Shown here: positions 8,533 through 63,704 of the stretch, piece by piece | Layout: each line of letters starts with the position of its first letter | How positions within the stretch are numbered: the first letter of the stretch is position 1 | Source: a virus | Taxonomy: Duplodnaviria; Heunggongvirae; Uroviricota; Caudoviricetes | Strand: one strand, 5' to 3' | Length of the DNA: 64,000 nt | IMG/VR virus record: IMGVR_UViG_2718218201_000002 | Location: 1 to 64,000 of that record | Translations under genes and position numbers: made by a program | The notes under the pieces: model-generated | The model's input: the letters and a program-made list of their open reading frames with translations, nothing else | Database searches by the model: none | What the model was told of the DNA's origin: nothing

Positions 8533-8739
8533 GAGAACTCACCTTCCTCTTTTTGTCAATTAATTTATTTTTGTTCATAAAAATTATATTGCAAATTAAC
8601 AAGAAAATCCTCGTATGTTTCTAATGACTCGGTAAAATCAGCAGTGTTTTCTGTTCCTTCAATGTAAACATAACCTTGGCTTGTTTCTGTAATCTCTGTA
8701 TTCATTTGTATGACCTCTCGTCTTTAATAATTTAGTCTG

Positions 8740-9429
8740 TTAGTCTATAATTTCAATCTTAATTTTCTTTTTATTCTCTGAGGCATAATCAAAGATATGG
8801 TTTAAACTCGTCTCACCAATTTTAAACTCATCACCATTGAACTCACCTTCAATAGTTTTCTTAAACATGCCCTCGATTAATTCTTTAATTAAATCAACAT
8901 CAATTCGATTCTCTTCAATTACTAAGTATGATTGCAATTGTTTACCTGTAATGGTATCTGTGATAGCAAAAATCATTCTACCTCCATATTTATCAATTTC
9001 TGCTACTACACGCAAAACTAAGTTTTTGAAATCAGTAATCAAATCATCATTCAAAGTTTCATCAGCTTTAATCTTGTCCTCAATTTTGCTAATCTCACCA
9101 TTAGCAACAATAGCCGCTACATCAACTGATTTTGAAACTTCTTTTAAGGTTTTGGCTAACTCTTCTTTAGTAATTTCGACAGGTTCATTGTAAGTATTAA
9201 TAGCAACACCTCGATAAACTTTTTCTTTGTGGTTAGCTGCATCTAGCGCAATATGAAACTCTTGCTCACTAATTCCTGATGCTTGAATACTATAATCTCC
9301 CCAATTTTGCTCATGAAGATACTCATAGAATGAACCGACTGGACTCTTGTCAGACAGAGTTGTAAGAAACCAATTAATCGCTTCTTCCTCATTCTCAAAC
9401 CTTAAACCATCTACCGTGTATAATGGCAT
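8740..9429 (-). CDS. hypothetical protein
   Basis: 229-aa acidic ORF. Confidence 0.4.
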   Translation of the reverse strand: MPLYTVDGLRFENEEEAINWFLTTLSDKSPVGSFYEYLHEQNWGDYSIQASGISEQEFHIALDAANHKEKVYRGVAINTYNEPVEITKEELAKTLKEVSKSVDVAAIVANGEISKIEDKIKADETLNDDLITDFKNLVLRVVAEIDKYGGRMIFAITDTITGKQLQSYLVIEENRIDVDLIKELIEGMFKKTIEGEFNGDEFKIGETSLNHIFDYASENKKKIKIEIID

Positions 9430-9441
9430 AATGTTTCCCTC

Positions 9442-9954
9442 CTATTTAATTGAAAGTGTTTGATTAGTAACCAACTTGGCATAATCAATCTTTTCTACTT
9501 CTTCCTCACTTAAACTTTTAAGATACTTTTTGAAGCCCTCTTTATCTGGTTTACTGATAAATTCTTCTTTAATAAACTCTTTAGGCATTTTAGACTCATC
9601 ATAGATATGTAACACTTTTGAATTTCTAGTTGATACAGTGATAGTAGGTGTTTCTACTTTCTTTTTGTTAAGCTCTTTCATGTTATGTAATAAATATTCT
9701 TTAAGTCTAATAATTTGTTTCTCTTTCTTTTTTCTTAGGTTATCAATCTCACCTTTACGATTTTTAATAACTAATAAATCGTCTTCTAACTTTTGGATAA
9801 CCTTGCCTGTGTTTGCAATTTTTTCCTCAGCACCATCAGCGATAGCATCTAAAGTATCTTTTAAATCTTCGTAAGTTAAATCCTCGTTCTCATCAATAAA
9901 TCTTAATACATTATGATAAGATTCTGTGTAATCATATAGTTTCATGTCTTCCAT
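9442..9954 (-). CDS. hypothetical coiled-coil protein
   Basis: 170-aa ORF, rich in K/E with heptad-like repeats. Confidence 0.4.
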   Translation of the reverse strand: MEDMKLYDYTESYHNVLRFIDENEDLTYEDLKDTLDAIADGAEEKIANTGKVIQKLEDDLLVIKNRKGEIDNLRKKKEKQIIRLKEYLLHNMKELNKKKVETPTITVSTRNSKVLHIYDESKMPKEFIKEEFISKPDKEGFKKYLKSLSEEEVEKIDYAKLVTNQTLSIK

Positions 9955-10002
9955 ATAAGTAGCCTCCTATGTTTTGACATGCAACTTTATATTACTTTTA
10001 AT

Positions 10003-10031
10003 ATGATAAAGTATATCAAGTCACATGTCAA
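10003..10031 (-). promoter_or_regulatory. sigma-A-like promoter (TTGACA-17-TATCAT), preceded by the AGAAATAAATTAA motif
   Basis: Minus strand reads TTGACATGTGACTTGATATACTTTATCAT. The motif copy at 10041-10055 abuts the -35. Confidence 0.4.
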
Positions 10032-10040
10032 GTATATTTA

Positions 10041-10646
10041 TTAATTTATTTCTTTAGGTCTGTAATACACTGCTACAACATAACAGATAAACAGTAGTGC
10101 GACATTAACACTTTCCGTAATTACAGTATGCGGACTAGCACCTGTTAATAATAATAACAAAATTAAGTCTAACAATCCTACTGCAAATAAGCCGTATAAA
10201 AGTGGATTAGTTCCTTCTGAAGTTTTGACTTTATAAAAATGTTTTAGTTGTGACAAGTACGCCAGTATAATTGCTAATGACGCAAGTGCTTGAGAATGGC
10301 TCACTCCTACATTGTTTGTAATGAATGGCACCACCACTAAATAAGTTAATATAAATAGTACATATTTCGTTTTATTATTTTTATTGTGTACATGATTAAA
10401 GTAAAGGAAAAACATACAAGCAAACGAAGTGTTTACAATCTGTCCCATATACATGTACCACTCTGCTTCCCCAGTTTCAATAATATTTCGCAAGGTAATT
10501 GATGTAGCGGTTGCGATATAAAACCAAAAGGAAGTTGATACACCTCTATTAGTCTTATATTTTAAAGTAGTGTAAATTTGCGGTAAGTAGCCAATAATAA
10601 AAATTAAAACTACTAAAATATTTAACATGTGTAAAAAGTTTTGCAT
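10041..10646 (-). CDS. polytopic membrane protein, PnuC/PQ-loop-like transporter (tentative)
   Basis: 201 aa with 6-7 predicted TM helices. The GYLPQIYTTLK motif resembles a PQ-loop. Confidence 0.35.
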   Translation of the reverse strand: MQNFLHMLNILVVLIFIIGYLPQIYTTLKYKTNRGVSTSFWFYIATATSITLRNIIETGEAEWYMYMGQIVNTSFACMFFLYFNHVHNKNNKTKYVLFILTYLVVVPFITNNVGVSHSQALASLAIILAYLSQLKHFYKVKTSEGTNPLLYGLFAVGLLDLILLLLLTGASPHTVITESVNVALLFICYVVAVYYRPKEIN

Positions 10647-11428
10647 TATTTTCCACCCACGATAACACCTTGAGAGTTAATTTCTAAAGGATTCTCGCCT
10701 TTCCATTTATCAATCTTTTGTTTTTCAATGAGTTCTGGCGTCAAAGAATCATTAAGAATCTTGTTTGCTTTTGCTTCACCCTCAGCTTCAATACGTCGCT
10801 TTTCAGCATTAGCACTAGCAATTTGCTTGTCTGTTTTTGCTCTTTCTAATTCTTGGTTAGCCTTAACTCGTTCGTCAATTGATGCTTGTGTTGCTTTATC
10901 AGCTTCTGGACTTGACACTGCTATGTCCTCAATAATAAATCCTTCTTTTTCTAATCGTTTTTGAAGAGCTTCAATAGTATCTTTTTTAATTTCTCCTGCT
11001 TTAACACCAAATGTCTCAATTACCGAATACTTTGATACTGATTGACGTAAGCCATCTTGAACTCTTGTACGTAAATAGCCATTCTCTAATTGTTCAATAT
11101 CAGCATTTCCAAACTTATTAAAAATAGGAACAACTTTTGTTGCATCTACATGATAGTTTACACTAATACTCATTGTTAAATTCTTACCATCTGACGTCGC
11201 TACATTCAATTTGTCGTACTCTTTTGTCTGTGTACGTACTGGATAGTCCGTAGTACGGGTCAGTGGTGAAACTAAATGCCAACCAGCGTTGAGTGTCTTA
11301 TCTTTTACTCCGGCTGTACTGTACATTACGGCTACGTTCCCTTGTGGTACTTTCTCAATACAAGCAGTTAATAAAAGCAATGCTGCTACTGTCAATACTC
11401 CAATTGCTGCAACTAATCCTTTTGACAT
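10646..11428 (-). CDS. SPFH/band-7 (prohibitin/HflC-like) membrane-anchored protein
   Basis: N-terminal TM helix, SPFH core (PQGNVAVMYS...), then a long A/E/K-rich coiled-coil tail. Confidence 0.55.
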   Translation of the reverse strand: MSKGLVAAIGVLTVAALLLLTACIEKVPQGNVAVMYSTAGVKDKTLNAGWHLVSPLTRTTDYPVRTQTKEYDKLNVATSDGKNLTMSISVNYHVDATKVVPIFNKFGNADIEQLENGYLRTRVQDGLRQSVSKYSVIETFGVKAGEIKKDTIEALQKRLEKEGFIIEDIAVSSPEADKATQASIDERVKANQELERAKTDKQIASANAEKRRIEAEGEAKANKILNDSLTPELIEKQKIDKWKGENPLEINSQGVIVGGK

Positions 11429-11739: not shown

Positions 11740-12296
11740 TTTAATTTCAACAACTCTTTTAACTCTGGTTTGTCTTTTAGAATCTCATGCAACAAAGTAA
11801 TAAAACTTAACCGATATACATCTTCTCCTGAATACATATAAAGTGCCCAATCTTTAGCTAATGGTTTAATATCATGCCATTTCAAGTACTTATGTAATTC
11901 GTCAATAACAGCGGATAAGTCCTCTACTTCGTATAATTCTTCGTAGTCTTCTTCTTTTAATTGTATTGAGTAGATAGTATACCCTTCTATTTCAGAATTT
12001 CGAAATGGTGTTACCTCATATCCTGCGCTATAAAACACTTCTAACTCTTCACCACTTAGTTCTTTAAAAGTCTTAAATATTGGTATTTTCTTTAAAACTC
12101 TTTTTTCGTATTCTGTTACAATACTGTTAAACTCTCTTATGGTGTCCATAAATTCTCTTTGTTTTTCTCTTTTTTTTTGTAATTCGCCATTTAATTCGTC
12201 TCTTGAATAAATCAATCCTTCAAATCCAGCTAAACCATTCATTATATCTACACCTTTCATTAATTTATTTTTGTAAATTGTCAACAACTTTACCAA
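11736..12296 (-). CDS. hypothetical protein
   Basis: 186-aa ORF. Confidence 0.35.
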   Translation of the reverse strand: MVKLLTIYKNKLMKGVDIMNGLAGFEGLIYSRDELNGELQKKREKQREFMDTIREFNSIVTEYEKRVLKKIPIFKTFKELSGEELEVFYSAGYEVTPFRNSEIEGYTIYSIQLKEEDYEELYEVEDLSAVIDELHKYLKWHDIKPLAKDWALYMYSGEDVYRLSFITLLHEILKDKPELKELLKLK

Positions 12297-13525: not shown

Positions 13526-13539
13526 GACAACATCACCTT

Positions 13540-13652
13540 ATTCAATTAAATTATTTTTGTTCTTTAGCTAACTCAATGCGTTCAATTGCAACATCGTAAT
13601 ATTCTTCATACCTTCTAAACAGTCTTCATTATAAATTTTGTTAAGTTCAATC
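13540..13652 (-). pseudogene. remnant of an N6A/N4C DNA methyltransferase (start and C-terminus only; core deleted)
   Basis: The ATG overlaps the Ndt stop (ATGA). It reads MIELNKIYNEDCLEGMKNI, a canonical N6_N4 MTase N-terminus, and then after a frame change YDVAIERIELAKEQK*, a typical C-terminus. Confidence 0.45.
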
Positions 13653-14271: not shown

Positions 14272-14492
14272 AACATTAAGTCATAAATTTCATTCTTATC
14301 AAATAATTCAAAGTCATCTTTATGTAGCCACTCTATGTCGCTTAACAAATAATTTAACTTGTCATATCTTTTATGTTCGATAATTTTTGCTAACTCCTCA
14401 ACTATATCTTCAAGAGTATTTGGTCTAATATATGTATACTTTGTCATATTTTCACCTTTTGTATAATAATTTATTTTTAATAACCTTTCCAT
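14268..14492 (-). CDS. hypothetical small protein
   Basis: 74 aa, overlaps its neighbours. Confidence 0.35.
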   Translation of the reverse strand: MERLLKINYYTKGENMTKYTYIRPNTLEDIVEELAKIIEHKRYDKLNYLLSDIEWLHKDDFELFDKNEIYDLMF

Positions 14493-15906: not shown

Positions 15907-15934
15907 TTCATTTACCTTTCAATTAATTTATTTA

Positions 15935-17260
15935 CTAATGATAAGACACATCATAAACTGTTTTATCTTCTCTAATTTGTTTAAAAGTTGGGAAACGTAA
16001 ACTTAAATTACCGTCTTTATCACTAGACTCTTCAAAATAGCCAACTTCAACAATTTTGTTGATAATTAGTTCTGGCTCTTGCCAATACTTCATTCTCTGT
16101 TTTTCTGTAAATCCTGAGCCTACTTGTAATTCATTTCCTTTATACTCAACAACAATACTTCCTAACTTACCACCACGTGTGTGTTCAACTAGCTGTAACA
16201 CTCTCAAATCAGCGCTATAAAAAGTCTTAAATTTTAGCAGCGTTTTTGTTCGTGTAGTTGTATAGTAAGCATTAATATCATCTAGCATAGTTCCCTCGTA
16301 TCCTAATTCTTCCATTTTCTTTTGAACACGTTGAATTTCTGCTAGGTCATTGCCTTGGTATAAAGATTTAACATTTGTAAAATACTTTCGACCTTGTTTA
16401 TTTCCATCTGTATATGTATTAAGAATTTCAGTATATTCGGCAACTTGTTCACGTCGTTTAGTAAATTTAAGTTTTGACTTACCGTCCTTGAATTCTTCTA
16501 ATGGCATACAATCAAACATAATATACTGTATATCTGACTTAATACCATCTTTTCTCAATCGACTTGAAGTAACTTTGAACAATTTATCACTACTTAAGTC
16601 ATTGTCATTAAATGCTAAAAGTTCGCCATCAAACATCATTGGCTGTTTGTGTTCCTCATAAAACGCTTCAAGAGCTTTTTCAAATGTAATTAAACCTTTG
16701 TATTCTTTACCGCTTCGTGCGAATAGTTTTACACCATCTTTATCTACTAAAGCTACACAACGATGTCCATCAATCTTTACACTTTGCGAATAAATTGCGT
16801 TCGCTTTCAACTCACCTTCAAACTTACTACCTTTACGCACATCAAATTTAAAGATGAAGTTTTTACCAAAGACTTTATTTAGTGTAATTTTACTTATGCC
16901 TGCTGGGTAATCTTTAATAACGATATTCTTAACAAGATTGGCAATATTTTCTCCATACTCATTTTTAAATGCTTGAATGTATCCTCTAACTAAAGCTATA
17001 TCTCTATCTTTACCAGAATTATTTTTTTTCAAGTAATCCATTAATACTTGTAAATTTGGATTATCGACCTCTACTGGATTAACTGGTTTGGCAATCTTTT
17101 TATTAGATAAGCCCGTTGTGATTAAGTCGTCGTATAAAAACTTTAAAACATTTTGCAATAACTCATCTTTCTTGCCACTTCTCAAAATACTTTCTTTTTC
17201 AATTCTGCTAGAAGTTTTTTTCAAACTTTCAAGCACTTCGTACAACTTCTGAATTTCCAT
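15935..17260 (-). CDS. ATP-dependent DNA (or RNA) ligase
   Basis: Motif I KIDGHR, motif IV-like EGTML and motif V LLKFK. 441 aa. Confidence 0.6.
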   Translation of the reverse strand: MEIQKLYEVLESLKKTSSRIEKESILRSGKKDELLQNVLKFLYDDLITTGLSNKKIAKPVNPVEVDNPNLQVLMDYLKKNNSGKDRDIALVRGYIQAFKNEYGENIANLVKNIVIKDYPAGISKITLNKVFGKNFIFKFDVRKGSKFEGELKANAIYSQSVKIDGHRCVALVDKDGVKLFARSGKEYKGLITFEKALEAFYEEHKQPMMFDGELLAFNDNDLSSDKLFKVTSSRLRKDGIKSDIQYIMFDCMPLEEFKDGKSKLKFTKRREQVAEYTEILNTYTDGNKQGRKYFTNVKSLYQGNDLAEIQRVQKKMEELGYEGTMLDDINAYYTTTRTKTLLKFKTFYSADLRVLQLVEHTRGGKLGSIVVEYKGNELQVGSGFTEKQRMKYWQEPELIINKIVEVGYFEESSDKDGNLSLRFPTFKQIREDKTVYDVSYH

Positions 17261-17648
17261 GATAACCTCCTTGTGCCACTAAACTCGCTTTTGTATTTAT
17301 AGCATGTTTCTTTAATTCAGGAATAAGGCGATGAAGCTCACGTGATTTATAATTATAAAATAATAATTCTTTTTCAGTTTCTCCACAATATTTATCATTT
17401 AATTTATTTTCTAAAGCATTAATAGTTGAATCAACCATTTGTAAGTATGGTTCTAACGATTCAATAAACTTATTGATTAATTCTAAATCATCTTTATCTA
17501 ACGCCTTATATCCTAATTTTTCAATATCATCTACCAATGATTGTGTTTCTTTCACTTCATTATGTAATTTGCTCATATATTGTTCTCCTCTATGTCTATG
17601 TGTTTTCTTTATATTGATATTATACCACATAACCACAAAGATAAGCAA
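17229..17648 (-). CDS. hypothetical protein
   Basis: 139 aa. Confidence 0.35.
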   Translation of the reverse strand: MLIFVVMWYNINIKKTHRHRGEQYMSKLHNEVKETQSLVDDIEKLGYKALDKDDLELINKFIESLEPYLQMVDSTINALENKLNDKYCGETEKELLFYNYKSRELHRLIPELKKHAINTKASLVAQGGYHGNSEVVRSA

Positions 17649-18101: not shown

Positions 18102-18158
18102 TTAATTTATTTCTTATTATAGTATATATCGACCTTTACAATAAGTCAAGAATATATT

Positions 18159-22095: not shown

Positions 22096-22263
22096 CCTTA
22101 GTAATTTATTTTATTTCTTTTTGTTCTATAATATTTAGCTTTTCGAACCCTGTTCAACTTCTTCTCTTCTGTAGTGTACTTGGGTTTGGGAATAATCTCC
22201 CCTCTAATAAACTTTGTTAGTAATTCTATGTACTCAAAAGTTTCATCTGTTTTTATCATCATC
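22096..22263 (-). CDS. small basic ORF (about 54 aa) upstream of the polymerase gene
   Basis: MIKTDETFEY...KAKYYRTKRNKINY*. Its start overlaps the stop of the upstream gene. Confidence 0.2.
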
Positions 22264-25614: not shown

Positions 25615-25851
25615 TTATTTGACAATCTCAAAATTACCATCGCAAAATTCATCAATATTTCTTGCCCATGTATTATCCCAATTTTCATCACTGTAAATTA
25701 CTAATACTTCGCCATATCTTTCGTTAGTTGTGTTTTTAACAAACATTTCAATACGATATTCAGTGCCACGCTTTTTATGTTTGACATATACATATTCATC
25801 TAATCCTCCTTTACGTTTATCAAGTTCAATTAATTTATTTTTATCAATCAT
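25615..25851 (-). CDS. hypothetical small protein
   Basis: 78 aa. Confidence 0.3.
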   Translation of the reverse strand: MIDKNKLIELDKRKGGLDEYVYVKHKKRGTEYRIEMFVKNTTNERYGEVLVIYSDENWDNTWARNIDEFCDGNFEIVK

Positions 25852-26712: not shown

Positions 26713-26795
26713 ATATTTTCTTTTAATATCGCTTAAATTTTATAACTATCTTTATATTTGCTGACTTGTCGCTCTATTGAAACAACTGAGCCTCT

Positions 26796-26889
26796 ACCAT
26801 GTTAATTCGTATAGAACTAAAACTATAACCACGTATAAGCGTGTTAATCCTCAGTATCACCACTATGTTAATTCGTATAGAACTAAAAC
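26796..26889 (-). repeat. CRISPR-like mini-array: two 28-nt direct repeats flanking a 38-nt spacer, downstream of tnpB on the same strand
   Basis: The repeat read on the minus strand is GTTTTAGTTCTATACGAATTAACAT(G/A)GT, at 26796-26823 and 26862-26889. The spacer is GGTGATACTGAGGATTAACACGCTTATACGTGGTTATA, about 39% GC against a local figure of about 30%. Confidence 0.45.
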
Positions 26890-27118
26890 CTCAAACCAAT
26901 CTAACATCAGACATTGGTGAGTAGCCTAACTCGGTTTTTGTGAGTTAGATTTCAAGTTGAATATTCAACTTACCTTTCGAGTGTGTTTCGTTTTTATTAT
27001 ATCGTTAAAAATTATGTATTTGCCTCTTAAAACGACACTTTCTCGATTTTGTGACATGATACTGCCACAATGCTATGACGTTTAGCACCTTGCGATATTT
27101 TTATTTATTAATTTATTT

Positions 27119-28471: not shown

Positions 28472-28512
28472 TCATCTCACCTCATTTAATTTATTTCTTT
28501 GTTACACTTAAT

Positions 28513-43067: not shown

Positions 43068-43499
43068 TTAATTTATTTCTTTTACTTCTTCGAAACTCCA
43101 AATCGTTGTAGCAATTCCTCTGTCATCAGTGTAAATAATTGACGTCACATTAGGATTGTTATTCAGCACACCGTTAATAGATACATTGTTTTGTGTTATT
43201 GTAATTAATTTTCCTAATGATTCTGCTTTGTTTCCTACACCGCTATTGTTAATCACAATATCAACTCGATTAAGAATTGTATCTTTATCAACTGATTTAC
43301 TTGTTGTTACATCAAACTCTTCCTCAGACGTAAACTTTTGACTTACAGTAACATAGCCGTCCGAATCAAAATAAACCTTTGTTTTCTTGTCTCCTAAGAA
43401 TGTACGTTCTCTAAAATCTTCTTCCCAAGCAATTTGCAACAACTCTGATAAGTTTACCTTCTTATTAATATTAATATCCATTGTCTTCCTCCTTCTCAA
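43068..43499 (-). CDS. paralog family C-like protein
   Basis: ...MDININKKVNLSELLQIAWEE...TTIWSFEEV. Confidence 0.35.
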   Translation of the reverse strand: MRRRKTMDININKKVNLSELLQIAWEEDFRERTFLGDKKTKVYFDSDGYVTVSQKFTSEEEFDVTTSKSVDKDTILNRVDIVINNSGVGNKAESLGKLITITQNNVSINGVLNNNPNVTSIIYTDDRGIATTIWSFEEVKEIN

Positions 43500-43884: not shown

Positions 43885-44184
43885 ATTTTTACCTCTTTAT
43901 ATAAATTAATTTATTTCTTTTATTTAGAAATTGGCGCTTAGTATAAGGTTAGAAATACTAAACGCCTGACTACATTTACTATGTGTTTTGGGCTCACATA
44001 CAGGAATCGCACCTGTGTATAAATAATACCACAAACTATGTGTATGAGCATATAGGGAATTAATCCCTATTAGACTAATTTTAATTATTAAAGACTAATC
44101 ATTCGAAAATATTGATAAGGTGAGATTATCAACACAAGCCAATGATTACTCGTTGATTATTTACTGTTTTTACCTTATGACTAA

Positions 44185-44213: not shown

Positions 44214-44232
44214 CATATTAATTAATTTATTT

Positions 44233-50252: not shown

Positions 50253-50447
50253 TTATTTTTTTGTTTTATTATTAATTCGTTTACTCCAATGCTTTGGTCG
50301 ATATGCATATAGTATGTCAATTAAATTATTTTCTTCATAATAATTTAAAAACTCTTTAATTCTCTTATTCTTTCTATATAAATAAATTGTTGCATCTTGG
50401 TACATCAAATTATATATGGTATACTCTATGATTACCACCGCATTCAA
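50253..50447 (-). CDS. hypothetical small protein
   Basis: 64 aa. Confidence 0.25.
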   Translation of the reverse strand: MNAVVIIEYTIYNLMYQDATIYLYRKNKRIKEFLNYYEENNLIDILYAYRPKHWSKRINNKTKK

Positions 50448-50582
50448 AAGTATGTATGTATTTCTTATCTTTCAACTTATAAATATTGGATACACTTTCT
50501 TTATATCCTTAATTTTAGCAAGGCAAGAATTATCCCGCCTCGCTATTTCTCTATATTCTATCAATTAATTTATTTCTTTTGA

Positions 50583-51533
50583 TTAGAAAGGTAAATCTTC
50601 ATCAGTTAAAGTTGAAGTATTTGTTGTTGTCGATTTCTTAACAATATTAACTCCTTTTTTAACCTCTTGCTTTTTCTTCTCTTGAGAAGCTGATTGACGC
50701 TCTACTTTATAGTCTTCATACTTCTTCATAGCATCTTTCATTTCTTCAGTAGTGATGTATCCAACTGATTCTTCATCTTCTGCCGGAGAGGCACCTTCAA
50801 CTAGAATACGATTCTCAATTTCACGTTTAGTATCCACAATTGGTTTACCAATACCAGCTGGGTTAGGACGTTCTACTTGTTTAAGAATATATTTGTTAAT
50901 CCACTGCCCGTTAATAGTTAAGGTCATACCTTTTTCAAGATTATCTTCTAACCATTCAGCGACACCATATTCGTCAGTCGCTTCAACTTCAAAAGGTTGA
51001 GCCATACCACGTTGAATAGCTGCTACTTTGAATCTTACGCTGTCTGTTTCATCTCCATCTTTATTGGTAACACGAGTAGCACTTGATAAAGCAAATGTTT
51101 GGAAAACAAATTCAACACCGTAATCTTCTTTTTTAGCGTTACGTCGAGACACAAAATTAGCTTGAATTGTTGGCATCTCTACTAATTTACCATCACGTCC
51201 TTGATACACATTGTTTTCAATATGTCCATTAATACCAATAACAGTTGGACTAACGTCTTGTAAGTTTTTCTCTGCAATGTCTTTGAGGCTTACATACTCA
51301 TCTTGCATAGTCTCAATAGCTTTATAAGCCTTATTCTCTTCTTTTTTGCCATCGTTCTCAAAGTATTCCATAGCTGACATTCTAGCTCTATGTACTTCTC
51401 CTTCTCCTGTTTGTACAGAGATATTTGCCATTTTCATTGGAACGCCTTTTTTAGTTGTAATTTCTCGTACCTCTAATTCTTTAAGCTCTCCTAAAACCGT
51501 CACTTTGTTTTCATATCGTTTGTTTTCAGCCAT
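50583..51533 (-). CDS. putative single-stranded DNA-binding protein with an SSB-type acidic C-terminal tail (DEDLPF)
   Basis: 316 aa. The C-terminal ...TDEDLPF resembles the SSB-Ct (D-D-D-I/L-P-F). It is positioned next to Sak4. Confidence 0.4.
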   Translation of the reverse strand: MAENKRYENKVTVLGELKELEVREITTKKGVPMKMANISVQTGEGEVHRARMSAMEYFENDGKKEENKAYKAIETMQDEYVSLKDIAEKNLQDVSPTVIGINGHIENNVYQGRDGKLVEMPTIQANFVSRRNAKKEDYGVEFVFQTFALSSATRVTNKDGDETDSVRFKVAAIQRGMAQPFEVEATDEYGVAEWLEDNLEKGMTLTINGQWINKYILKQVERPNPAGIGKPIVDTKREIENRILVEGASPAEDEESVGYITTEEMKDAMKKYEDYKVERQSASQEKKKQEVKKGVNIVKKSTTTNTSTLTDEDLPF

Positions 51534-51587
51534 ATTATTATTCTCTCCTATGTAATGTAATTTAATTTATTTTTATTAATTTTAAAC

Positions 51588-52739: not shown

Positions 52740-53045
52740 TCAAAGTAATTCAATAGTAGTTGTATACTCTTTATCTCGTGTAACTGGAGGAGTATTAACA
52801 TCAATATCAAACTCAATAACAGTTGAATTTCCTCCATCTTTACTCAAGTTATGAGCAATAATATGCTTCTTAATCAACTCGTATACACTTTCTATTGCTT
52901 CTTCCTTAATTGCTTCAAGCTCTTTATCTTTCAATTTCTTAAAAGATTTGTCTCGTGTAATTCTGACACTGTAATGAGCCAAAACATTTCCCCTTTCATT
53001 TAATTTATTTCTTGTAATTTGAGTAATTACAATTTCATAATACAA
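52740..53045 (-). CDS. hypothetical small protein; annotated start probably too far upstream
   Basis: The motif and RBS (AAGAAATAAATTAAATGAAAGGGGAAAT) lie inside the predicted ORF. An in-frame TTG near 52990 is more plausible. Confidence 0.3.
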   Translation of the reverse strand: MYYEIVITQITRNKLNERGNVLAHYSVRITRDKSFKKLKDKELEAIKEEAIESVYELIKKHIIAHNLSKDGGNSTVIEFDIDVNTPPVTRDKEYTTTIELL

Positions 53046-53085: not shown

Positions 53086-53129
53086 TGATTTTTATTAATT
53101 TATTTCCTTTAATTTGCCCTAATAACTTT

Positions 53130-54143
53130 TTAGGGCTTATTCACTATTACTACTCCATATAATTCTTGCAAAGCATCTGTATACTGTTCACTAAACCTAG
53201 CAACCGTATAAGATAAGGAATTTTTAAAAATATGCCTATTATATCTTCTCATTACTTTTTCTATTTTTATGAAATCTAATTTTCCTTTTTCTGATAGCAA
53301 GTACATATAATGTAATATACCAGAATCAATGACGTTAGTGACGCTTGAGATATAATTATTAGTTAAATCTTGTAACACCCTTATTCGTCTGTATACTACT
53401 TGCTTATCAATTTGTTCTGTTGTGGTATCAGTAAACTCGACATTTCTAAAAATATGGTTTCCACTTATCACTTCTTTTGCAGGTGTTCTAGAACTAGGGT
53501 CACCATTCTTGGTATAATAGATTGTGGCTTTATACGAGCTCTCCATGTCGTCTAACAATAGTTCAGGCACTTCGACATAGCGTTCAATTGTTTCACTTTT
53601 TTTGTCATTTAAAAGTTTTAATTTATAATATTGCTCATTATTAGCAACATGCGTTGGATTATTTCTGGCTTCTTTAACATCTTCAATGGTTAAATTGATT
53701 AACTCACTATAAGCTGTTCCAGAAATACCATGAAAAATTGCTGAAATTAATGCTCTATCACTAGCATTATAGAAACTACTAACATGCAATAAGAATTTTT
53801 CGTACGTGAAAAATTTTTGTTTATGTTTGTACACAAACTTATCAATCTTGTCGTACGTAAACATTCTAAATAAGTTAATGTTAGACAGCCTATCCCCTCT
53901 TTCAATTGCATAGTCAGTATATTTTTTAGCAAATGTTAAATAAGTTAATAAAGTGTTCTTACTGGACGAATAGATGTTGTAAAGCAAAATTTCTATTTCC
54001 GTAGTAGTAAAATTATACAAATCAGTATCGAACTGTTGCTCTACTTTACTACTATTGTTGAACAACGCAGTATATACTCTTACTTCATTTTCACGCTCTA
54101 AAGATTGCAAGAACTGCTTTTTATACAAGCTATTATAAAACAT
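53130..54143 (-). CDS. hypothetical protein
   Basis: 337 aa. Its ATG overlaps the stop of the upstream ParB-like gene. Confidence 0.45.
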   Translation of the reverse strand: MFYNSLYKKQFLQSLERENEVRVYTALFNNSSKVEQQFDTDLYNFTTTEIEILLYNIYSSSKNTLLTYLTFAKKYTDYAIERGDRLSNINLFRMFTYDKIDKFVYKHKQKFFTYEKFLLHVSSFYNASDRALISAIFHGISGTAYSELINLTIEDVKEARNNPTHVANNEQYYKLKLLNDKKSETIERYVEVPELLLDDMESSYKATIYYTKNGDPSSRTPAKEVISGNHIFRNVEFTDTTTEQIDKQVVYRRIRVLQDLTNNYISSVTNVIDSGILHYMYLLSEKGKLDFIKIEKVMRRYNRHIFKNSLSYTVARFSEQYTDALQELYGVVIVNKP

Positions 54144-55456
54144 TACTTCACTCTCGCTTTCTCAAACAAGATTTTAATATTTTTGATTGCTTCGCTTTGT
54201 ACTTTCTTAATACTTTGATTTGCCATTTCAATTCTGAAGTTGACCTCGTTGTTTTTTAGATAATCAACTGCTTTATGAGCTTCATCTATAAATTCTTTAA
54301 TCGTTAAACCACTTTCGACATAATATTTAAGAAAGGCATAGATGTAAATACGAGTATTAAAAGTATTATTAATTTCCCGTAAGTCTATATAAGCTAAAAT
54401 TACTTCTGAAACTTCTTGAACAGTGCTTACTTGGTCTCTTCTAGTCTCAACTTTAAATAATTCATCAATGTACTTACTTAATTCAGAAAATGCTATTGAA
54501 CCCCCACCAGCTGTACTATTTGTGGTTTTAATAACATCTTCAAAAATAGCATCTTTATCTTTTATTGCCTTAACAACTTTGGCGCCTCCAGATTCTTGTT
54601 GTAGCTCTGCTACTCTATTTTTTGACCACGGTGTCGCTTTACTATGTTGTGCTTGCCATTTGATTGCTTCAGCTGTAGTAAAGTTACTAAAAACTACATT
54701 GAATTCAAAATTGATAGTTGGGTTTTCACGATAAGCGTTTTGCGCTGCTAATACACGGTGAAAACCATCGATAACATCTAATCTTGTTCCCTCAGTAATC
54801 GTTAATGTATAGCTCTCAGGGTCATAAATTAATTCATCACCATTCACGCTCGTCATAGGAGCGGCGTTAAAGAAAAGTGTACTTTCTTTTAAACCATCTT
54901 CTAAAAGCAACTTTTCCATTTCTCGAATATTCTTTTGATTCAACGTTGGCTTTCTAATAATTTTTCCAATTCGTTTTTCCAATTTTGATTCCCGTTGAAT
55001 ATCAAAGTTATAATTGATTACTTTAGAATCAACAAACTCTGCAATTTGCTTAACACTTATTTTTGTACTGTATACATTGTTTACTTTAACAACTGGTTGA
55101 AAATCATATGGGAAAGTAATTTTATCTTGTTCTAAGAATGCATGAAAATCAAATTGTTTTGCCTCATTAATTTCCCCAGCTGTTAGATACTCTTGTATAC
55201 CGTCTTCGTACCCCAATACTTTAAAACTTTCCAAAATGAATAACGAGATTAGGCGAATATCAGTGGTGTCAAAAAAGTTATCATCTAGTTCACGATTCAA
55301 GAAAGAATGTGTGATGCCGCTAGGAACTCTATATTTTCTTTCCATTTCATTAGCAATTTTATTAATCAATTTACTGGTATCTTGATTTTTTAGAAGTGTG
55401 ATAACTTCTCTAAAAGCCTTGAATTTATTATTCATGCTTTCCCTCCTTTTTATCAT
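54143..55456 (-). CDS. ParB/Srx-superfamily (DGxHR motif, DndB-like) nuclease-domain protein
   Basis: 437 aa with DVIDGFHRVLAAQ in the central region. Confidence 0.4.
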   Translation of the reverse strand: MIKRRESMNNKFKAFREVITLLKNQDTSKLINKIANEMERKYRVPSGITHSFLNRELDDNFFDTTDIRLISLFILESFKVLGYEDGIQEYLTAGEINEAKQFDFHAFLEQDKITFPYDFQPVVKVNNVYSTKISVKQIAEFVDSKVINYNFDIQRESKLEKRIGKIIRKPTLNQKNIREMEKLLLEDGLKESTLFFNAAPMTSVNGDELIYDPESYTLTITEGTRLDVIDGFHRVLAAQNAYRENPTINFEFNVVFSNFTTAEAIKWQAQHSKATPWSKNRVAELQQESGGAKVVKAIKDKDAIFEDVIKTTNSTAGGGSIAFSELSKYIDELFKVETRRDQVSTVQEVSEVILAYIDLREINNTFNTRIYIYAFLKYYVESGLTIKEFIDEAHKAVDYLKNNEVNFRIEMANQSIKKVQSEAIKNIKILFEKARVK

Positions 55457-55692: not shown

Positions 55693-56790
55693 TTATTTTA
55701 TTTTCGTTAATAAAGCTAACTCTTTTTTTAACATAAATTGCATTGCTTCTGGTAAATTGCTTAATACCTCAATTAGCTCAGTTTTACTATATTCAGAAAA
55801 TCTAATATCAGCAGTGTCAATTTTCTGTTTGTTCGATATAGCACCTTGAAATGCTTGTTTATTATCCTCAAGATAAATTTGAGTAGTGTTAATATTCGCA
55901 TGATTTCCTACTTGTTTAGCTATTTGAATATCTTTGGTAGCTTCATAGGCGTAGTTTACTGCTCCTTTTTTGAAACTATGAAAAGTGATATTTCTATTTT
56001 CATACCCTAAAGCCTTTTTAGCCCGCTTCATCATTTTATACCTAAGTTCACTAGAAAAATTGAAAATCGGCTCATTTGAATTCTTATCAAGTTGCAATTC
56101 ATCAAACATTGCTGATGCGAATTCTAATGATAAACTTTTAATAAATTGTTTCTTCCCTTTGTCTATACCTTTTAATATAACCTCTCCTTTCTTCCATATA
56201 AATGATTGAGGAGTGATATTGTTTAATGCTTCAGCACGAATACCGGTATCAAACGCTAAGGCAGTATAATAGTATTTATCGATTGCTTTTTCTTTCTCAT
56301 TCTCTTTAAACCAATTGATAAACTCAAGTGCTTCGTCATAGCTCAACACTTCATATGAATTTTTAGATGTTTTTAACTTTGCTATATTGTTGATACCCAC
56401 AAGGTCAATTTCATACCCGCTGTTATATAGGAATTTTGCGAATTCGATTATAGCTGACATCTTACGATTAATAGTGCTTGGTTTTAATTCACTTTTAATT
56501 AAGACACTTCTATATTGAATCAACTGTTTTCTATTCATAGTGTGTACGACCAAATCGACTTTAACATTCTCAGTTCCATATATTTTATTAAGGAATTGTT
56601 TTAAGTCATTTAAATATGCTGATTTAGTGCTTTGTGAATTAGCTCCTGCTTCATCAGCGAATTCATTAACTAAACTCAAAATGCTATTTGTGACACTATT
56701 ATTACTCATAATATGATTTTCTAGTCTTATAACGTTTGCTGTCATTTTTCCTTCTCTCCATTCTTTTAATCTTGCATTCGTACGTTTCAT
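55693..56790 (-). CDS. tyrosine recombinase / phage integrase
   Basis: Box I TGIRAEAL and box II FHSFKKGAVNYA...GNHANINTTQIYL (catalytic Tyr). The N-terminus has a SAM-like core-binding domain. The second conserved Arg appears as Lys. Confidence 0.6.
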   Translation of the reverse strand: MKRTNARLKEWREGKMTANVIRLENHIMSNNSVTNSILSLVNEFADEAGANSQSTKSAYLNDLKQFLNKIYGTENVKVDLVVHTMNRKQLIQYRSVLIKSELKPSTINRKMSAIIEFAKFLYNSGYEIDLVGINNIAKLKTSKNSYEVLSYDEALEFINWFKENEKEKAIDKYYYTALAFDTGIRAEALNNITPQSFIWKKGEVILKGIDKGKKQFIKSLSLEFASAMFDELQLDKNSNEPIFNFSSELRYKMMKRAKKALGYENRNITFHSFKKGAVNYAYEATKDIQIAKQVGNHANINTTQIYLEDNKQAFQGAISNKQKIDTADIRFSEYSKTELIEVLSNLPEAMQFMLKKELALLTKIK

Positions 56791-57374
56791 TTATCTTATC
56801 TATATTATAATTTATTTCCTTTAAAATAACAAGTCTTTTTGACAAATCCCATGTGGAAGTTTTACACCCTGTTATATAGGGATTTCTCGACGGAAAATTC
56901 GACGGAAAAAATCCCCGTGGAATTTAAAATCGCCTGTTATATAGCGTTTTTTGTTTATTCATGTTGAGTCTCAAAGTATTTGTCTTTCTATTTTTTCACA
57001 TCTTCCATAATGCGAAAATGTTATTTGTCAGTTATCTTGATTGTCATTTATCGACTAATAAGATTGAACAGTTTCGGATAAAATAAAAAATGCACACACG
57101 ACGTCTATATAACGCCTCTTAGCGCCTTTTATATTTTACGTGGGTAAGTACTATGTGCTACAAATGGCTCTATGACGGGCTTTATAAGGGGCTGTAATTA
57201 CGATAAAATCAGTATTTTATTGTTAAATTTTTCCACTGTTTCGCCACATTTTCAGCAATTTAATACCTTTTTGTCAACAAAATCAATTCACAATATTATT
57301 CTGTCGTGTAGTTATTAGCACAATGATGTATAATCAGATTAATCACATTTCTATTTGAAAAGGAGGTATAAACC

Positions 57375-57731
57375 ATGAAAGTAATAATAAACATTGATGA
57401 TGACAATTTTAATTTTTTGAATCAACTTACTGAACAAGATAATACAACAATAGACAACATTATCAATGAGTTGATAAAATTTAATATTACTGATGTTAAT
57501 AAGGCGTACCAGCAAGCCGATAAACAAGCGATAAATGATTTTGCCAAAATTGCTGGAAAATATTTTCATGAAGATATAGCAAGCCTTTACGACGTTATAA
57601 ACACAACCGAGGAAATGGACACAGACAGAAGAATGTTGAATGTATACAAAAAGTTGTACCAAGACGTATTTTTGCGTGATGGTGTGTTGCTTGAATTATT
57701 TAAAGAATATGAAAAAGACGGTCGCAATTGA
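57375..57731 (+). CDS. hypothetical protein (plus strand), divergent from the integrase
   Basis: 118 aa with strong RBS AAAGGAGGT. A TATAAT lies 30 nt upstream. Confidence 0.45.
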   Translation: MKVIINIDDDNFNFLNQLTEQDNTTIDNIINELIKFNITDVNKAYQQADKQAINDFAKIAGKYFHEDIASLYDVINTTEEMDTDRRMLNVYKKLYQDVFLRDGVLLELFKEYEKDGRN

Positions 57732-57765
57732 CCGCCTTTTTAAATTTATTTATTTAATATTATAT

Positions 57766-61183: not shown

Positions 61184-61185
61184 TT

Positions 61186-61491: not shown

Positions 61492-61819
61492 TTTTCATGT
61501 ACTCCTTATTTAATTTATTTTTATTAAACATTTTCGTTTTCTCAAGAGCATAACTATCAATCATTAAATCAAGTGTGTGCCCTTTATCGTCTACTAACTC
61601 ATACTGATATACGTCCTCGCTTGCGTCCTCTAATTCTTCTGGTGAATCGACTAAGTCTCTTATTTCAGCATCAGTGATTGTAAAAACTGTATTGCTTAAA
61701 TACTCGTCTTGTAGCTCTGGTACGTCATAATAGCCCGTATAGCCCTTGTAATTGTCAATGTCCGTAATTTTAACTTTTTCACCGATTGTAAATTTTTGAT
61801 TAAATTTCATTTTAATCAC
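61478..61819 (-). CDS. small acidic protein, paralog family D
   Basis: TIGEKVKITDIDNY...NTVFTITDAEI. Confidence 0.4.
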   Translation of the reverse strand: MIKMKFNQKFTIGEKVKITDIDNYKGYTGYYDVPELQDEYLSNTVFTITDAEIRDLVDSPEELEDASEDVYQYELVDDKGHTLDLMIDSYALEKTKMFNKNKLNKEYMKNEIL

Positions 61820-61840
61820 TCCTTTTTTATTATTTGTTTT

Positions 61841-62170
61841 TTACACACATACTTCAGCTTCAATAACTGGTACAACCTCGATTTTTTGAACTACAATAAA
61901 GTAGTCTGTTAAATATTCGCCATTTGTGTCGGGCAATCCGTCTGCATCTTCCACGATGGAAAATGTCAATTGTCCATCGTCTGTTATATTAATGTCGCTT
62001 TCTCCAACATCATAATATTTTTGAACGACGTCAAGCACATCATAAAAATTATTGCTCTCTGATTTGCCGAGATTGAAGCCGTCCGTAATGATTACGTCCC
62101 CGCTCCAGTCTTGCAATTTTTGATTAAATTTAGTGAATTGTTTTCTTTCTACTTTTACGTTAAATTTCAT
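61841..62170 (-). CDS. hypothetical acidic protein
   Basis: 109 aa. Confidence 0.35.
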   Translation of the reverse strand: MKFNVKVERKQFTKFNQKLQDWSGDVIITDGFNLGKSESNNFYDVLDVVQKYYDVGESDINITDDGQLTFSIVEDADGLPDTNGEYLTDYFIVVQKIEVVPVIEAEVCV

Positions 62171-62211
62171 TTTTTTGATTCCTCCATGTTTATAATTTAT
62201 TTTTTAATTTT

Positions 62212-62514
62212 TTAGTTTAAATCAATTGATTTAACGTAATCACCTTTGTAAGTGATTTTGTAAATAGTGCCTTTGATAAGGTTGTCACTGTAAATTGTGT
62301 ACTGTTCTTTTTCACTCAACATTTTTGAATCTTCAGCGTGCTTGAACACCCTTAATGATTGAGCGTCCTCAGCGATTGCGTATGACAGAAACGTGTTTTG
62401 TGTTTGTTCAATTTGGTTTTTTGTGTTGCTGTTTAAACTGTCAAAATCGGTTTGTGGTGTTTGTGCAAATGGCAAGAGTAACAATGTGCTTGCTGTTATA
62501 AGTGTTTTTAACAT
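62212..62514 (-). CDS. secreted small protein (signal peptide)
   Basis: MLKTLITASTLLLLPFAQT has a hydrophobic h-region. Confidence 0.35.
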   Translation of the reverse strand: MLKTLITASTLLLLPFAQTPQTDFDSLNSNTKNQIEQTQNTFLSYAIAEDAQSLRVFKHAEDSKMLSEKEQYTIYSDNLIKGTIYKITYKGDYVKSIDLN

Positions 62515-62527
62515 TGTAATTTCTCCT

Positions 62528-63124
62528 TTAAAAACTCATAGTAAAAATGTGTGCATTTTTTTGATTAAGCCCGATATATCTATATTCAGCATTTAACAAA
62601 AGGTCATGCCCTTTTGCCTCAGCGTCAAAGTATATTGTTAATTCTTCAACATAAGGCGGTTCAATGCTCGTTGCCTTTAATTCGGGCTCTAAAATGTTTT
62701 CAAAATACCATAATCCGAGCGCTTTTTTATAGTTATCAGAATAAAATTTTGAGCTTAAAGTGACTGAGTAAAAACATGCGTTGATTCTTTCGTTTTCGTC
62801 ATCAAACATGTCTTTGATTTCTTTTGCAATTTCAACGTCAATGCCAGTGTGGTTATTTACATAACTTACACGATTAGCCATTGTTTGCAATTCCTCGATT
62901 GAATGAAACTCACTAATGTTAAACAAATCGCTTTCATAATCAGAAATAAACCATTCATTCCCCTTGCTAGCAATTGCGTCAATATATGCGCTCATTGCTT
63001 CAAATTCAGTTAAAGCGTTAAACCATTTACCAACTAAATTACCGGCGTTGTATTCAGCTAAATCGCTGATGAAAAGATTAAGCTGAATGTTGTTCTGTGT
63101 GTTGTTTGTATTTTGATTTTCCAT
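62528..63124 (-). CDS. ardA: ArdA-family anti-restriction protein (DNA mimic)
   Basis: LFISDLAEYNAGNLVGKWF...ISDYESDLFNISEFHSIEEL aligns with Tn916 ArdA (VYIANLGKYNEGELVGAWF...IHDYELPFTVDEYTSIGEL). Acidic. Confidence 0.55.
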   Translation of the reverse strand: MENQNTNNTQNNIQLNLFISDLAEYNAGNLVGKWFNALTEFEAMSAYIDAIASKGNEWFISDYESDLFNISEFHSIEELQTMANRVSYVNNHTGIDVEIAKEIKDMFDDENERINACFYSVTLSSKFYSDNYKKALGLWYFENILEPELKATSIEPPYVEELTIYFDAEAKGHDLLLNAEYRYIGLNQKNAHIFTMSF

Positions 63125-63198
63125 TTTTGTTACCTACCTTTTTATTTGTTTATTTTAATTTATTTCTTATGGCTAAGTTACTAAAACAATTTTTTAAG

Positions 63199-63297
63199 TA
63201 AGTCTTTTTGACTTACTAGGACGCCTAAAGTAAAGCTACATAGTAGAGCCCCGATAATTTCGGCAAATTCGAATACCATTTTTAATAACCTCCAGTC
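63199..63297 (-). CDS. small hydrophobic peptide (32 aa) with strong RBS GGAGG
   Basis: MVFEFAEIIGALLCSFTLGVLVSQKDLLKKLF*. Confidence 0.2.
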
Positions 63298-63382
63298 ATT
63301 TTATATTGTCGCTGTTAAATGCGACTTTTTAATAATTCTATTGAGCGCCCATATTTTTAGGTTATGGACACTCTAACAATTA

Positions 63383-63622
63383 TTAAAGCGTTTGTGTAAT
63401 TTTTGTAGGAGGGAACTCGAACCAAAAAGTTTGATAAGAGTCACCCTTTTTGATGACGGCTTTTGTCGGGCGCATTCCATAAACCGTTTGCTCCCAATCA
63501 AACAATTTGTCACGAAATTCGTTATTGTGCTCGTATAACGTTTCAAACTGCTTGAAAGTGTAAAGAATTTTAATATGCTGACCGTACGGAGTAACTGTTT
63601 TCACTTTTACGCCTGTTATCAT
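63383..63622 (-). CDS. hypothetical small protein
   Basis: 79 aa. The motif copy at 63653-63666 lies upstream of its RBS. Confidence 0.35.
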   Translation of the reverse strand: MITGVKVKTVTPYGQHIKILYTFKQFETLYEHNNEFRDKLFDWEQTVYGMRPTKAVIKKGDSYQTFWFEFPPTKITQTL

Positions 63623-63704
63623 TTTTTAATCCCCCTAAATAATACATGTATTTTAATTTATTTCTTCTAAGTTTTAAAAGGTGGGCTCAATTACGAACCC
63701 CTTG

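Follow-up and report, generated by a model that had tools for sequence, protein, structure and literature searches.

The closest described systems come from two Bacillus phages, SPβ and phi3T. In SPβ, the element SPBRE is the binding site of MrpR (YopR), as shown by chromatin affinity precipitation sequencing (ChAP-seq), electrophoretic mobility shift assays and reporters, and MrpR is a master repressor with a tyrosine-recombinase fold and without recombinase activity (PMC10516654). The phi3T repressor SroF was crystallised on a 26-bp box, CAGTAATTTTATTTTTATTCTTAATG, around which it is clamped as a monomer, reading 24 of the 26 bp and recognising two consecutive A-tracts via the major groove (bioRxiv 10.1101/2025.11.27.690993). 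Here we compare with these systems a motif, AAATAAATTAA, that recurs throughout a 64,000-nucleotide stretch of Caudoviricetes DNA (positions 1 to 64,000 of IMG/VR record IMGVR_UViG_2718218201_000002; hereafter, the window). On the strength of motif statistics, a repressor homologue in a syntenic operon, resemblance to the phi3T box, co-variation and conservation, we consider it highly likely that this motif is the box of the prophage's own SroF/MrpR-family repressor, encoded at 53130-54143, the case for binding being one of homology and comparative anatomy.

Four whole phage genomes were compared with the window: phi3T, SPβ, the S. epidermidis phage KT429160 and the Mammaliicoccus phage phi6255. 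From ten named SPβ promoter regions we derived the SPBRE consensus tAGACAAAtACAAAwAATATGTATAtaa, whose 11 copies in SPβ all point toward the downstream gene and occur at ten promoters bound by MrpR in ChAP-seq (PMC10516654). SPBRE is placed upstream of the -35 (aimR), in leaders abutting the Shine-Dalgarno (SD) sequence (yopM, yopV), on both sides of one promoter (yonX) and upstream of yonP-yonO. On the gene strand the phi3T co-crystal box reads cattAAGAATAAAAATAAAATTActg, and the phi3T genome holds ~28 copies of (A/T)AGAATAAAAATAAAATTA, 28/28 co-oriented with genes, of which 25 are on the plus strand, within the plus-strand early arm, and three, on the minus strand, precede yonP-yonO, itself a minus-strand locus. 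These copies are either 3 nt from a σA -35 or directly abutting an SD. In KT429160 the top motif, AAGAAATAAAATATAA(T/A)A, is found ~24 times on the early-gene strand, and a tandem box pair lies on the other strand, upstream of the opposite arm's first gene; the S. epidermidis-type box is TTAAGAAATAAAATATAATA. Phage phi6255 carries 47 copies of ATAAAATATAA (full form AA(A/G)(G/A)ATAAAATATAA), 46 of them co-oriented with local genes.

A common anatomy emerges from these genomes. As in the window, the boxes of phi3T, KT429160 and phi6255 stand either at a fixed distance of a few nucleotides upstream of a TTGAC-type -35 or 0-20 nt upstream of SDs, and phi3T, SPβ, KT429160 and phi6255 all have paired boxes around one promoter as well as tandem boxes ahead of the gene at the yonO position. 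SPβ and phi3T encode the single-chain RNA polymerase YonO there. The protein at this position in KT429160 (L001 26862-28358) and phi6255 (L011 27281-28771) is ~497 aa long; it falls in a PHROG annotated 'sigma factor', has neither a Pfam domain nor detectable similarity to YonO, and is not encoded in the window. In every lineage two or three boxes precede the gene. Homologues of SroF were found in 76 phage records, including Geobacillus phage E3 and phages of the B. cereus group, Brevibacillus, Alicyclobacillus and Clostridium. No published link between staphylococcal SPβ-like phages and MrpR/SroF was found in the literature searched.

Distribution and promoter context of the box

The 11-mer AAATAAATTAA has 22 exact matches in the window, all on the minus strand, whereas dinucleotide-preserving shuffles average 1.13 and never exceed 4, and no 11-mer of the window is more over-represented (22 observed, 0.67 expected under a third-order Markov model). 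The original prediction, made from the letters of the window, had reported at least 17 copies of the core where chance would give about one, a true statement that under-counted the motif. Its nine exact copies of the 13-mer AGAAATAAATTAA were recovered, all nine carrying a further preceding A, and with up to one mismatch this 13-mer has 23 matches, all on the minus strand, for 2.1 expected. A logo of the 22 copies displays conservation over ~20-22 positions (taaaAgAAATAAATTAAtt.A.A), and the 22-nt position weight matrix (PWM) built from them (taaaAgAAATAAATTAAtt.A.A; site threshold of at least 12 bits) detected 28 sites, every one of them on the gene (minus) strand, with 0.76 in shuffles. Six of these are degenerate extra sites (56807, 55693, 50321, 22106, 14466 and 13546). 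The prediction had proposed counts on both strands, a weight matrix and a comparison with shuffles; run here, they place the motif far above both shuffled sequence and the opposite strand, and agree with its claim that all copies share a single orientation. All 15 coordinates it listed fall within 1-2 nt of true copies, and seven sites were missed (178, 5424, 12260, 17399, 25830, 27108 and 50565).

The resulting box has the gene-strand consensus wAAAGAAATAAATTAATTgAtA and is asymmetric, ~20-24 bp long with a core of ~14 nt; none of the 28 sites is palindromic. Since the long open reading frames (ORFs) of the window all lie on the minus strand, except for one small plus-strand island, every copy is co-oriented with transcription. 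Approximately 24 of the 28 sites lie between genes or at gene junctions. Like the phi3T box (Phi3TRE), the window sequence tAAGAAATAAATTAAt begins with AAGAA, has phased A-tracts and finishes in ATTA; a 26-bp version of the window-type box reads TAAAAGAAATAAATTAATTGATAnnn.

Promoter-like matches are overall no commoner in the window than in shuffles, so only the best sites are informative. Six gene-strand sites match the σA consensus at 11 or more of 12 positions, and four of these have a box 8-9 nt before the -35. They are the minus-strand sites 10031-10003 (TTGACA-17-TATCAT), with a box at 10041..10051, 9 nt upstream, that supplies the stop codon of the upstream gene (KEIN*); 28541-28513 (TTGACA-17-TATAGT), with a box at 28551..28561, 9 nt upstream; 44213-44185 (TTGACA-17-TATAAT, 12/12), with a box at 44222..44232, 8 nt upstream and directly after the stop of a RecJ-like gene; and 53085-53057 (TTGACG-17-TATAAT), with a box at 53095..53105, 9 nt upstream and right after the terminator-like hairpin of sroF. 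Two of these promoters also carry a leader box, at 28486..28496 (2 nt upstream of the tnpB SD) and at 53000..53010 (4 nt upstream of the SD of a conserved 'MAHYSVRITRDK' gene, phrog_9925). The prediction had the motif directly abutting the -35 of four σA promoters; the four copies do lie upstream of strong -35 hexamers, at a gap of 8-9 nt rather than in direct contact. Its KEIN* overlap at 10041 and the paired upstream and leader copies at the tnpB and 53085 promoters were verified, as was the second context it described, upstream of ribosome-binding sites: most copies without a downstream promoter lie 2-18 nt (some 0-20 nt) upstream of an SD. The gene strand has few predicted canonical terminators, so most SD-proximal boxes would be inside long operons.

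Two weaker minus-strand sites also have boxes. At 18149-18121, a 10/12 site, a leader box (18102..18112) starts 8 nt after the -10 and lies 12 nt upstream of an SD, whilst at 56832-56804 (TTGTTA-17-TATAAT, 10/12), upstream of sroD-E-F, a degenerate box (AAATAAATTAT, 56807..56817, 15.0 bits) covers the spacer and -10, an arrangement that suggests autoregulation. The only perfect 12/12 gene-strand site without a box, 29353-29324, precedes a Phd/MazE-type antitoxin (29038-29286) and a Fic/Doc toxin (28649-29041), suggesting that this toxin-antitoxin (TA) module is lysogeny-expressed cargo. A box-free promoter at this position fits a repressor of lytic genes, because TA cargo is expected to stay on in the lysogen.

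The predicted repressor gene and its co-variation with the box

The proposed box reader, sroF/mrpR (yopR-like; 53130..54143, minus strand), encodes a 337-aa homologue of the integrase-fold, catalytically dead master repressors. It matches chain H of PDB 9rd5 over residues 2-301 (E=8.4e-27), the sequence of this chain being identical to phi3T_97 and chain H therefore SroF, and it also matches MrpR (8a0a, E=2.5e-11); the integrase fold is assigned from sequence homology to these solved structures. The Pfam domain MrpR_N_CB is recognised at 60 bits (cut-off 27), MrpR_C_cat reaches 23 bits, below its cut-off of 27, and Pfam Phage_integrase has no match in the protein. Identity to SPβ YopR is 23% (E=7e-13). 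Based on alignment to MrpR Table 3 (vs Cre, XerH and λ Int), in which the C-terminal positions are less certain, the protein keeps two of the seven recombinase catalytic positions (R, E/D, K, H, R, H/W, Y), namely E147 and K182, with I140/S141, T269, I272/D273, A315 and L328 in place of R, H, R, H/W and Y. Judged by these residues, the window SroF is, like SroF and MrpR, predicted not to be a recombinase.

The repressor gene is the last of a module collinear with yopP-yopQ-yopR. Upstream of it on the minus strand lie sroE (yopQ-like; 54143..55456), encoding 437 aa with 34% identity to SPβ YopQ (E=6e-33; phrog_5732), and sroD (yopP-like; 55693..56790), encoding a 365-aa tyrosine-recombinase-like protein with a Pfam Phage_integrase domain, 30% identity to SPβ YopP (E=1e-22) and 52% identity to KT429160 SPbetalike_00013. 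The recombinase-like ORF 55693-56790 was itself considered as the repressor and set aside, being YopP-like rather than YopR-like, with the YopR homologue two genes downstream. Arbitrium is an accessory input in Bacillus phages and not part of the repressor-box pair. By a size criterion alone, with no AimR profile run, the 7 kb preceding the sro operon (56.8-64 kb) hold no ORF longer than 207 aa, AimR being ~380 aa, and the lineage seems to be without the arbitrium module that precedes the operon in Bacillus phages. In the ~900 nt immediately upstream of the sroD-E-F promoter (56818-57750), which run up to a strong bidirectional terminator-like hairpin (57712-57741), no convincing long ORF is present.

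To follow box sequence across SroF alleles, the commonest strand-specific 11-mer was taken from each of 53 loci encoding a SroF homologue in an IMG/VR scan. The window SroF is 40% identical to that of phi6255, 37% to that of KT429160 and 29% to that of phi3T. A locus whose SroF is 89% identical to that of the window (L013) has the window's box (AAGAAATAAATTA); at 44% identity (L014) the box variant is AAGATAAAATATA, at 37% (L017-L020) it is TTAAGAAATAAAATA and at 28-29% (L021-L026) it is AGAATAAAAATA, the phi3T type. The box variant therefore tracks the SroF allele, each lineage having its own box. Below 28% identity, where loci were represented by 20-kb pieces, the top k-mers were mostly uninformative, and over-represented oriented motifs were seen in L039/L040 (TGTAAAAAATAATGA, six copies) and L062 (AAGCAAAAGTATTGC, seven copies), which hints that a design of one repressor with many boxes is widespread in large Bacillota phages.

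The same cassette follows immediately after sroF in all staphylococcal-type lineages, comprising a hairpin, a box, a σA promoter, a lineage-specific repeat, a second box, an SD and a conserved gene (phrog_9925) whose product begins MA(H/N)Y(S/T)VR(I/V)TRDK. In the window the two boxes are those at 53095 and 53000, for which the orthologous boxes are at 9877 and 9791 in KT429160 and at 100225 and 100309 in phi6255, and in each cassette the longest internal direct repeat is its own lineage's box. The short repeats also differ, reading GTAATT-N5-AATTAC in the window (53015-53031), TCATGA-N4-TCATGA in KT429160 (L001 ~9800-9830) and ATTGCAA-N3-ATTGCAA in phi6255 (L012 ~10285-10310), and could be where a second lineage-specific regulator, perhaps SroE, binds.

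Conservation was assessed against L013, which is 87% identical to the window over 16 kb and in which five boxes could be aligned. The box 14-mers are identical at 70/70 positions, compared with 161/200 in the 20-nt flanks (Fisher P=5e-6) and 85% in other non-coding DNA, showing that the boxes are under purifying selection. Box 53095 is identical in L013, as are the box at 51562..51572 (intergenic, 12 nt upstream of SD AGGAGA), despite an indel in its flank, and the box at 50565..50575 (intergenic, after the stop of gene 50583-51533), the 3' flank of which is heavily diverged. Box 44222 is kept with a box-to-(-35) spacer of the same length and changed sequence, and the degenerate box 56807 is kept at L013 position 7333. 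Within the repressor, the recognition helix has an invariant K233 and reads K-F-x-x-H-R in phi3T, K-F-x-x-T-N in SPβ and K-Q-x-x-Y-R in all staphylococcal types, among which residues of the core-binding domain differ. Such differences are compatible with related but distinct specificities.

Alternative readings and a proposed mechanism of silencing

Three readings offered by the original prediction, and a fourth in which the motif serves the exchange of gene cassettes, were weighed against a repressor box. A phage promoter element, -10-like or single-element, read by a phage sigma factor or YonO-type RNA polymerase and starting a transcript at each copy, would account for strictly co-oriented copies before most gene starts and for the TAnnnT hexamers of the core (TAAATT in the window, TAAAAT/TATAAT in relatives); SPβ encodes YonO (PMC5467207), and the staphylococcal relatives encode the PHROG 'sigma factor' protein at the yonO position. 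However, that protein shows no homology to YonO and its gene lies outside the window; boxes are also found ahead of the sigma-like/yonO gene itself, and the homologous phi3T and SPβ elements are bound by repressor in experiments. The geometry is also unfavourable. At many boxes (window 61510, 28486, 12260, 53000 and 15923, and several in phi6255 and phi3T) 0-4 nt separate the box from the SD, so that a transcript starting 5-9 nt past an internal -10 would lose or truncate it; the logo has no -35-like signal at a fixed distance upstream, and boxes stand at fixed spacing upstream of good σA -35 hexamers. We regard a phage-specific promoter as improbable. A σA promoter embedded in the element, as in SPBRE (TAGACA-N17-TATAAT), was likewise set aside, the window logo having no -35-like signal upstream of the box.

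The A-tract-rich motif lies at ~-44 to -57 of four promoters, where an UP-element-like enhancer contacted by the C-terminal domain of RNA polymerase alpha would be placed. Yet about 20 of the 28 copies have no downstream promoter and would go unexplained by a pure UP-element role, UP elements are degenerate whereas the boxes are near-identical 14-mers under purifying selection, and the box sequence switches with the SroF allele, which host RNA polymerase alpha would not do. An UP element is thus most improbable as the primary function, and a secondary UP-like effect could still operate when the repressor is absent. Strict sense orientation, proximity to SDs, an unstructured A/U-rich sequence and stop codons in two frames, which suit gene junctions, are what would be expected of a signal in RNA that enhances translation, is processed by an RNase or is bound by an RNA-binding regulator 5' of the ribosome-binding site. 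Against this, spacing to the SD varies from 2 to ~18 nt whereas the 8-9 nt spacing to the -35 is fixed, the promoter-upstream copies are outside the transcript of the gene they precede, there is no Rfam family match, and the homologous phi3T/SPβ boxes are bound as double-stranded DNA by SroF/MrpR. An RNA-level signal is very unlikely as the main explanation and possible as a secondary role. It is barely credible that the motif is a recombination linker, a conserved boundary sequence for cassette exchange between phages without a regulatory role: copies do sit at the gene boundaries of a mosaic genome and flank the mobile tnpB, but the fixed -35 spacing, the paired boxes around promoters, the absence of boxes from lysogeny-type cargo (the TA module), the co-variation with SroF alleles and the direct binding data in Bacillus relatives would all be left unexplained. 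Of the roles the prediction had listed, the binding site of a phage transcription factor is the one supported; it named no factor and leaned to activating roles, whereas the factor proposed here is a repressor.

Several observations weigh against a SroF box or against its proposed mode of action. Three copies are intragenic (178, 5424 and 17399), where the only stop-free frame reads N-K-L. Five aligned SroFs gave no residue-to-base recognition code, their differences fitting distinct boxes without a decodable rule, and at 29% identity between the window and phi3T proteins specificity is not transferable residue by residue; the conserved core is also shorter in the window, at ~14 nt vs 19 nt in phi3T, or one A-tract fewer. 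Another co-evolving protein, SroE or SroD, could formally still be the box reader. The gene downstream of sroF has no significant BLASTP similarity to the phi3T antirepressor Sar, which is small and poorly conserved and may be encoded outside the window, and LexA-box matches in the window are at chance (10 vs 9.3 expected), none with fewer than two mismatches. Finally, we know of no demonstration of an elongation block by any SroF/MrpR protein.

If the motif is a SroF box, silencing may be envisaged as follows. In the lysogen, by homology to phi3T SroF and SPβ MrpR, SroF monomers would clamp around each box. At promoters 10031, 28541, 44213 and 53085 the bound protein, with a footprint of ~24 bp ending 4-5 bp from the -35, would block the binding or escape of RNA polymerase, aided at two of them by a second clamp in the leader. 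SD-proximal boxes inside operons would act as orientation-dependent blocks to elongation, keeping the 64-kb arm silent, and the degenerate box over the -10 of sroD-E-F would provide autoregulation. De-repression would require an antirepressor, expected for this family to be a small Sar-type protein under LexA control and encoded near sroF.

The elongation step is modelled on mycobacteriophages of the L5 type (cluster A), whose monomeric repressor has over 20 asymmetric sites, called operators where they lie in promoters and stoperators where they lie in short intergenic spaces; site orientation correlates with transcription, and inverting a site abolishes repression (PMC9283540). By this analogy, the operon-internal boxes could plausibly act as stoperator-like elongation blocks, a suggestion we would put at somewhat short of an even chance. 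The strict co-orientation of boxes in the window, phi3T, SPβ, KT429160 and phi6255 is a prediction of the stoperator model. Orientation, elongation and intergenic sites go unmentioned in both PMC10516654 and bioRxiv 10.1101/2025.11.27.690993, the 2023 Cell Host Microbe paper on the sro operon being outside this comparison.

Remaining boxes, gene content and comparison with known systems

The remaining boxes, all on the minus strand, are mostly at gene starts. Toward the high-coordinate end of the window, two intergenic copies lie ~17 nt (63653..63663, after a hairpin) and 14 nt (63155..63165) upstream of SDs, and a third (61510..61520) falls at a gene junction, within the last codons of the upstream gene as had been predicted and 2 nt upstream of SD AAGGAG. 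Further copies are intergenic at 43906..43916 (after a hairpin, 10 nt upstream of an SD) and 8560..8570 (10 nt upstream of an SD), and at junctions at 43068..43078 (6 nt upstream of SD AGGAGAGG), 15923..15933 (after the DNA-ligase gene stop, 4 nt upstream of an SD) and 12260..12270 (3 nt upstream of SD AAAGGTG). The copy at 25830..25840 is at the 5' end of ORF 25615-25851, where it either forms codons 4-7 or lies 18 nt upstream of an alternative SD/ATG. Degenerate boxes occur at the sroD/sroE junction (55693..55703, 13.8 bits), upstream of a Sak4-like AAA_24 (Pfam) gene (AAATAATTTAA, 50321..50331, 15.7 bits), 6 nt upstream of the SD of the DNA polymerase III (PolIII) α gene (AAATAAAATAA, 22106..22116, 14.1 bits), at a junction (AAATAAATTAT, 14466..14476, 15.6 bits) and in intergenic DNA (AAATAATTTAA, 13546..13556, 13.8 bits). 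The intragenic copies, of uncertain function, are at 17399..17409 (reading E-N-K-L-N in ORF 17229-17648), 5424..5434 (near the 5' end of ORF 4642-5502) and 178..188 (within the RusA-like ORF 116-703).

DNA matches of the window are all to Staphylococcus phages, the best record covering 7% of a 24-kb query, from which the host genus is inferred to be Staphylococcus; no close relatives of the window were found among the species-representative genomes scanned. Its PolIII α is 59% identical to homologues in S. epidermidis/S. haemolyticus "SPbeta-like" phages and Mammaliicoccus sciuri phages, and 42% identical to YorL of Bacillus SPβ and phi3T. Other large ORFs encode a split class Ib ribonucleotide reductase (RNR), an ATP-dependent DNA ligase, a DnaB helicase, a primase, a RecJ-like exonuclease (yorK-like), a Pnkp-like kinase-phosphatase-RNA-ligase, TnpB and the tyrosine-recombinase-like protein; the PolIII α gene is yorL-like. 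Given these replication genes and the kinship of PolIII α with SPbeta-like phages, the window is, on sequence grounds, assigned to the early/replication arm of an SPβ-like staphylococcal prophage of a lineage poorly represented in the phage collection. Known RNA families (Rfam) and tRNAs were not found in the window.

The 450-aa TnpB (27119-28471; Pfam Cas12f1-like_TNB) is encoded behind a strong σA promoter and has boxes upstream, in the leader and, at 27108..27118, immediately after its stop codon, so that a mobile-element nuclease appears to be wired into the lytic regulon of the prophage; ~400 nt of non-coding DNA downstream of the gene (26713-27118) could hold an omega-RNA or right end. 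The gene for the RNR large subunit is split (4642-7768 region) into an N-terminal part (6623-7768) and a barrel middle (5696-6328), followed by an HNH_3/NUMOD4 homing-endonuclease ORF (4642-5502) that carries the intragenic box 5424. This suggests an intron or homing-endonuclease insertion, as in SPβ bnrdE; no group I intron was detected there at the Rfam gathering score. A 770-aa fusion at 35823-38135 joins polynucleotide kinase (AAA_33), metallophosphatase and T4-type RNA ligase 1 domains, and is a Pnkp/Rnl-like RNA repair enzyme, presumably serving in counter-defence against tRNA-cleaving host nucleases. The plus-strand island (29400-30445) comprises a YolD-like protein (29400-29669), a 236-aa ORF without a Pfam match (29690-30400) and, at its end, a bidirectional terminator-like hairpin (30410-30445).

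Staphylococcal SPβ-like prophages are ~125-150 kb long, and KT429160 carries the resistance genes aacA-aphD and dfrA and a cell-wall-anchored surface protein; no description of their silencing or induction was found in the literature searched. A SroF box would supply a concrete regulator for such a prophage (53130-54143), with 28 candidate operators and five or six controlled promoters, and the rule of one box per lineage predicts immunity groups among these phages. It would also extend the integrase-fold repressor system from the arbitrium phages of Bacillus to phages of Staphylococcus and Mammaliicoccus that are apparently without arbitrium.

Compared with phi3T, the window shares a homologous repressor, encoded in an sroD-E-F operon, and dozens of oriented copies at -35 hexamers and SDs. 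It differs in its host genus, Staphylococcus, in a box-to-(-35) spacing of 8-9 nt vs 3 nt, in a recognition helix reading K-Q-x-x-Y-R vs K-F-x-x-H-R, and in that neither a Sar antirepressor nor a LexA box nor an AimR-sized gene could be detected close to the operon in the window. With SPβ it shares a non-catalytic integrase-fold repressor and a repeated, oriented element at early promoters and leaders, including paired copies (yonX in SPβ; 53095/53000 and 28551/28486 in the window), whereas SPBRE has only an A[C/G]AAATAA core in common with the window box, embeds a TAGACA-N17-TATAAT promoter in many copies and occurs 11 times in 134 kb, vs 28 sites in 64 kb of the window.

With L5 the likeness is one of genome-wide anatomy and oriented sites, co-oriented in 28/28 cases in the window, 28/28 in phi3T and 46/47 in phi6255. 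Across the family most boxes are at operon-internal gene starts rather than promoters and point with transcription, in parallel with mycobacteriophage stoperators. The L5 repressor is unrelated, with two helix-turn-helix (HTH)-type domains (HTH and Stoperator-domain) vs the integrase fold in the window, and the resemblance is a functional analogy and not homology; its sites are 13 bp and GC-rich, its host is actinobacterial, and orientation-dependent elongation block is demonstrated for L5. We tentatively raise the possibility, doubtful as it may be, that the SroF/MrpR family constitutes a second, evolutionarily independent stoperator system, in which a monomeric integrase-fold clamp on co-oriented boxes directly 5' of ribosome-binding sites would halt elongating RNA polymerase, depending on box orientation, and silence whole 130-kb prophages in Bacillus, Staphylococcus and Mammaliicoccus, beyond an action at the ten or so promoters so far described. 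Ultimately, the element is very probably of a known kind, the SroF/MrpR repressor box, and what is new is a Staphylococcus member of this family with its own box specificity and a high site density (28 in 64 kb).

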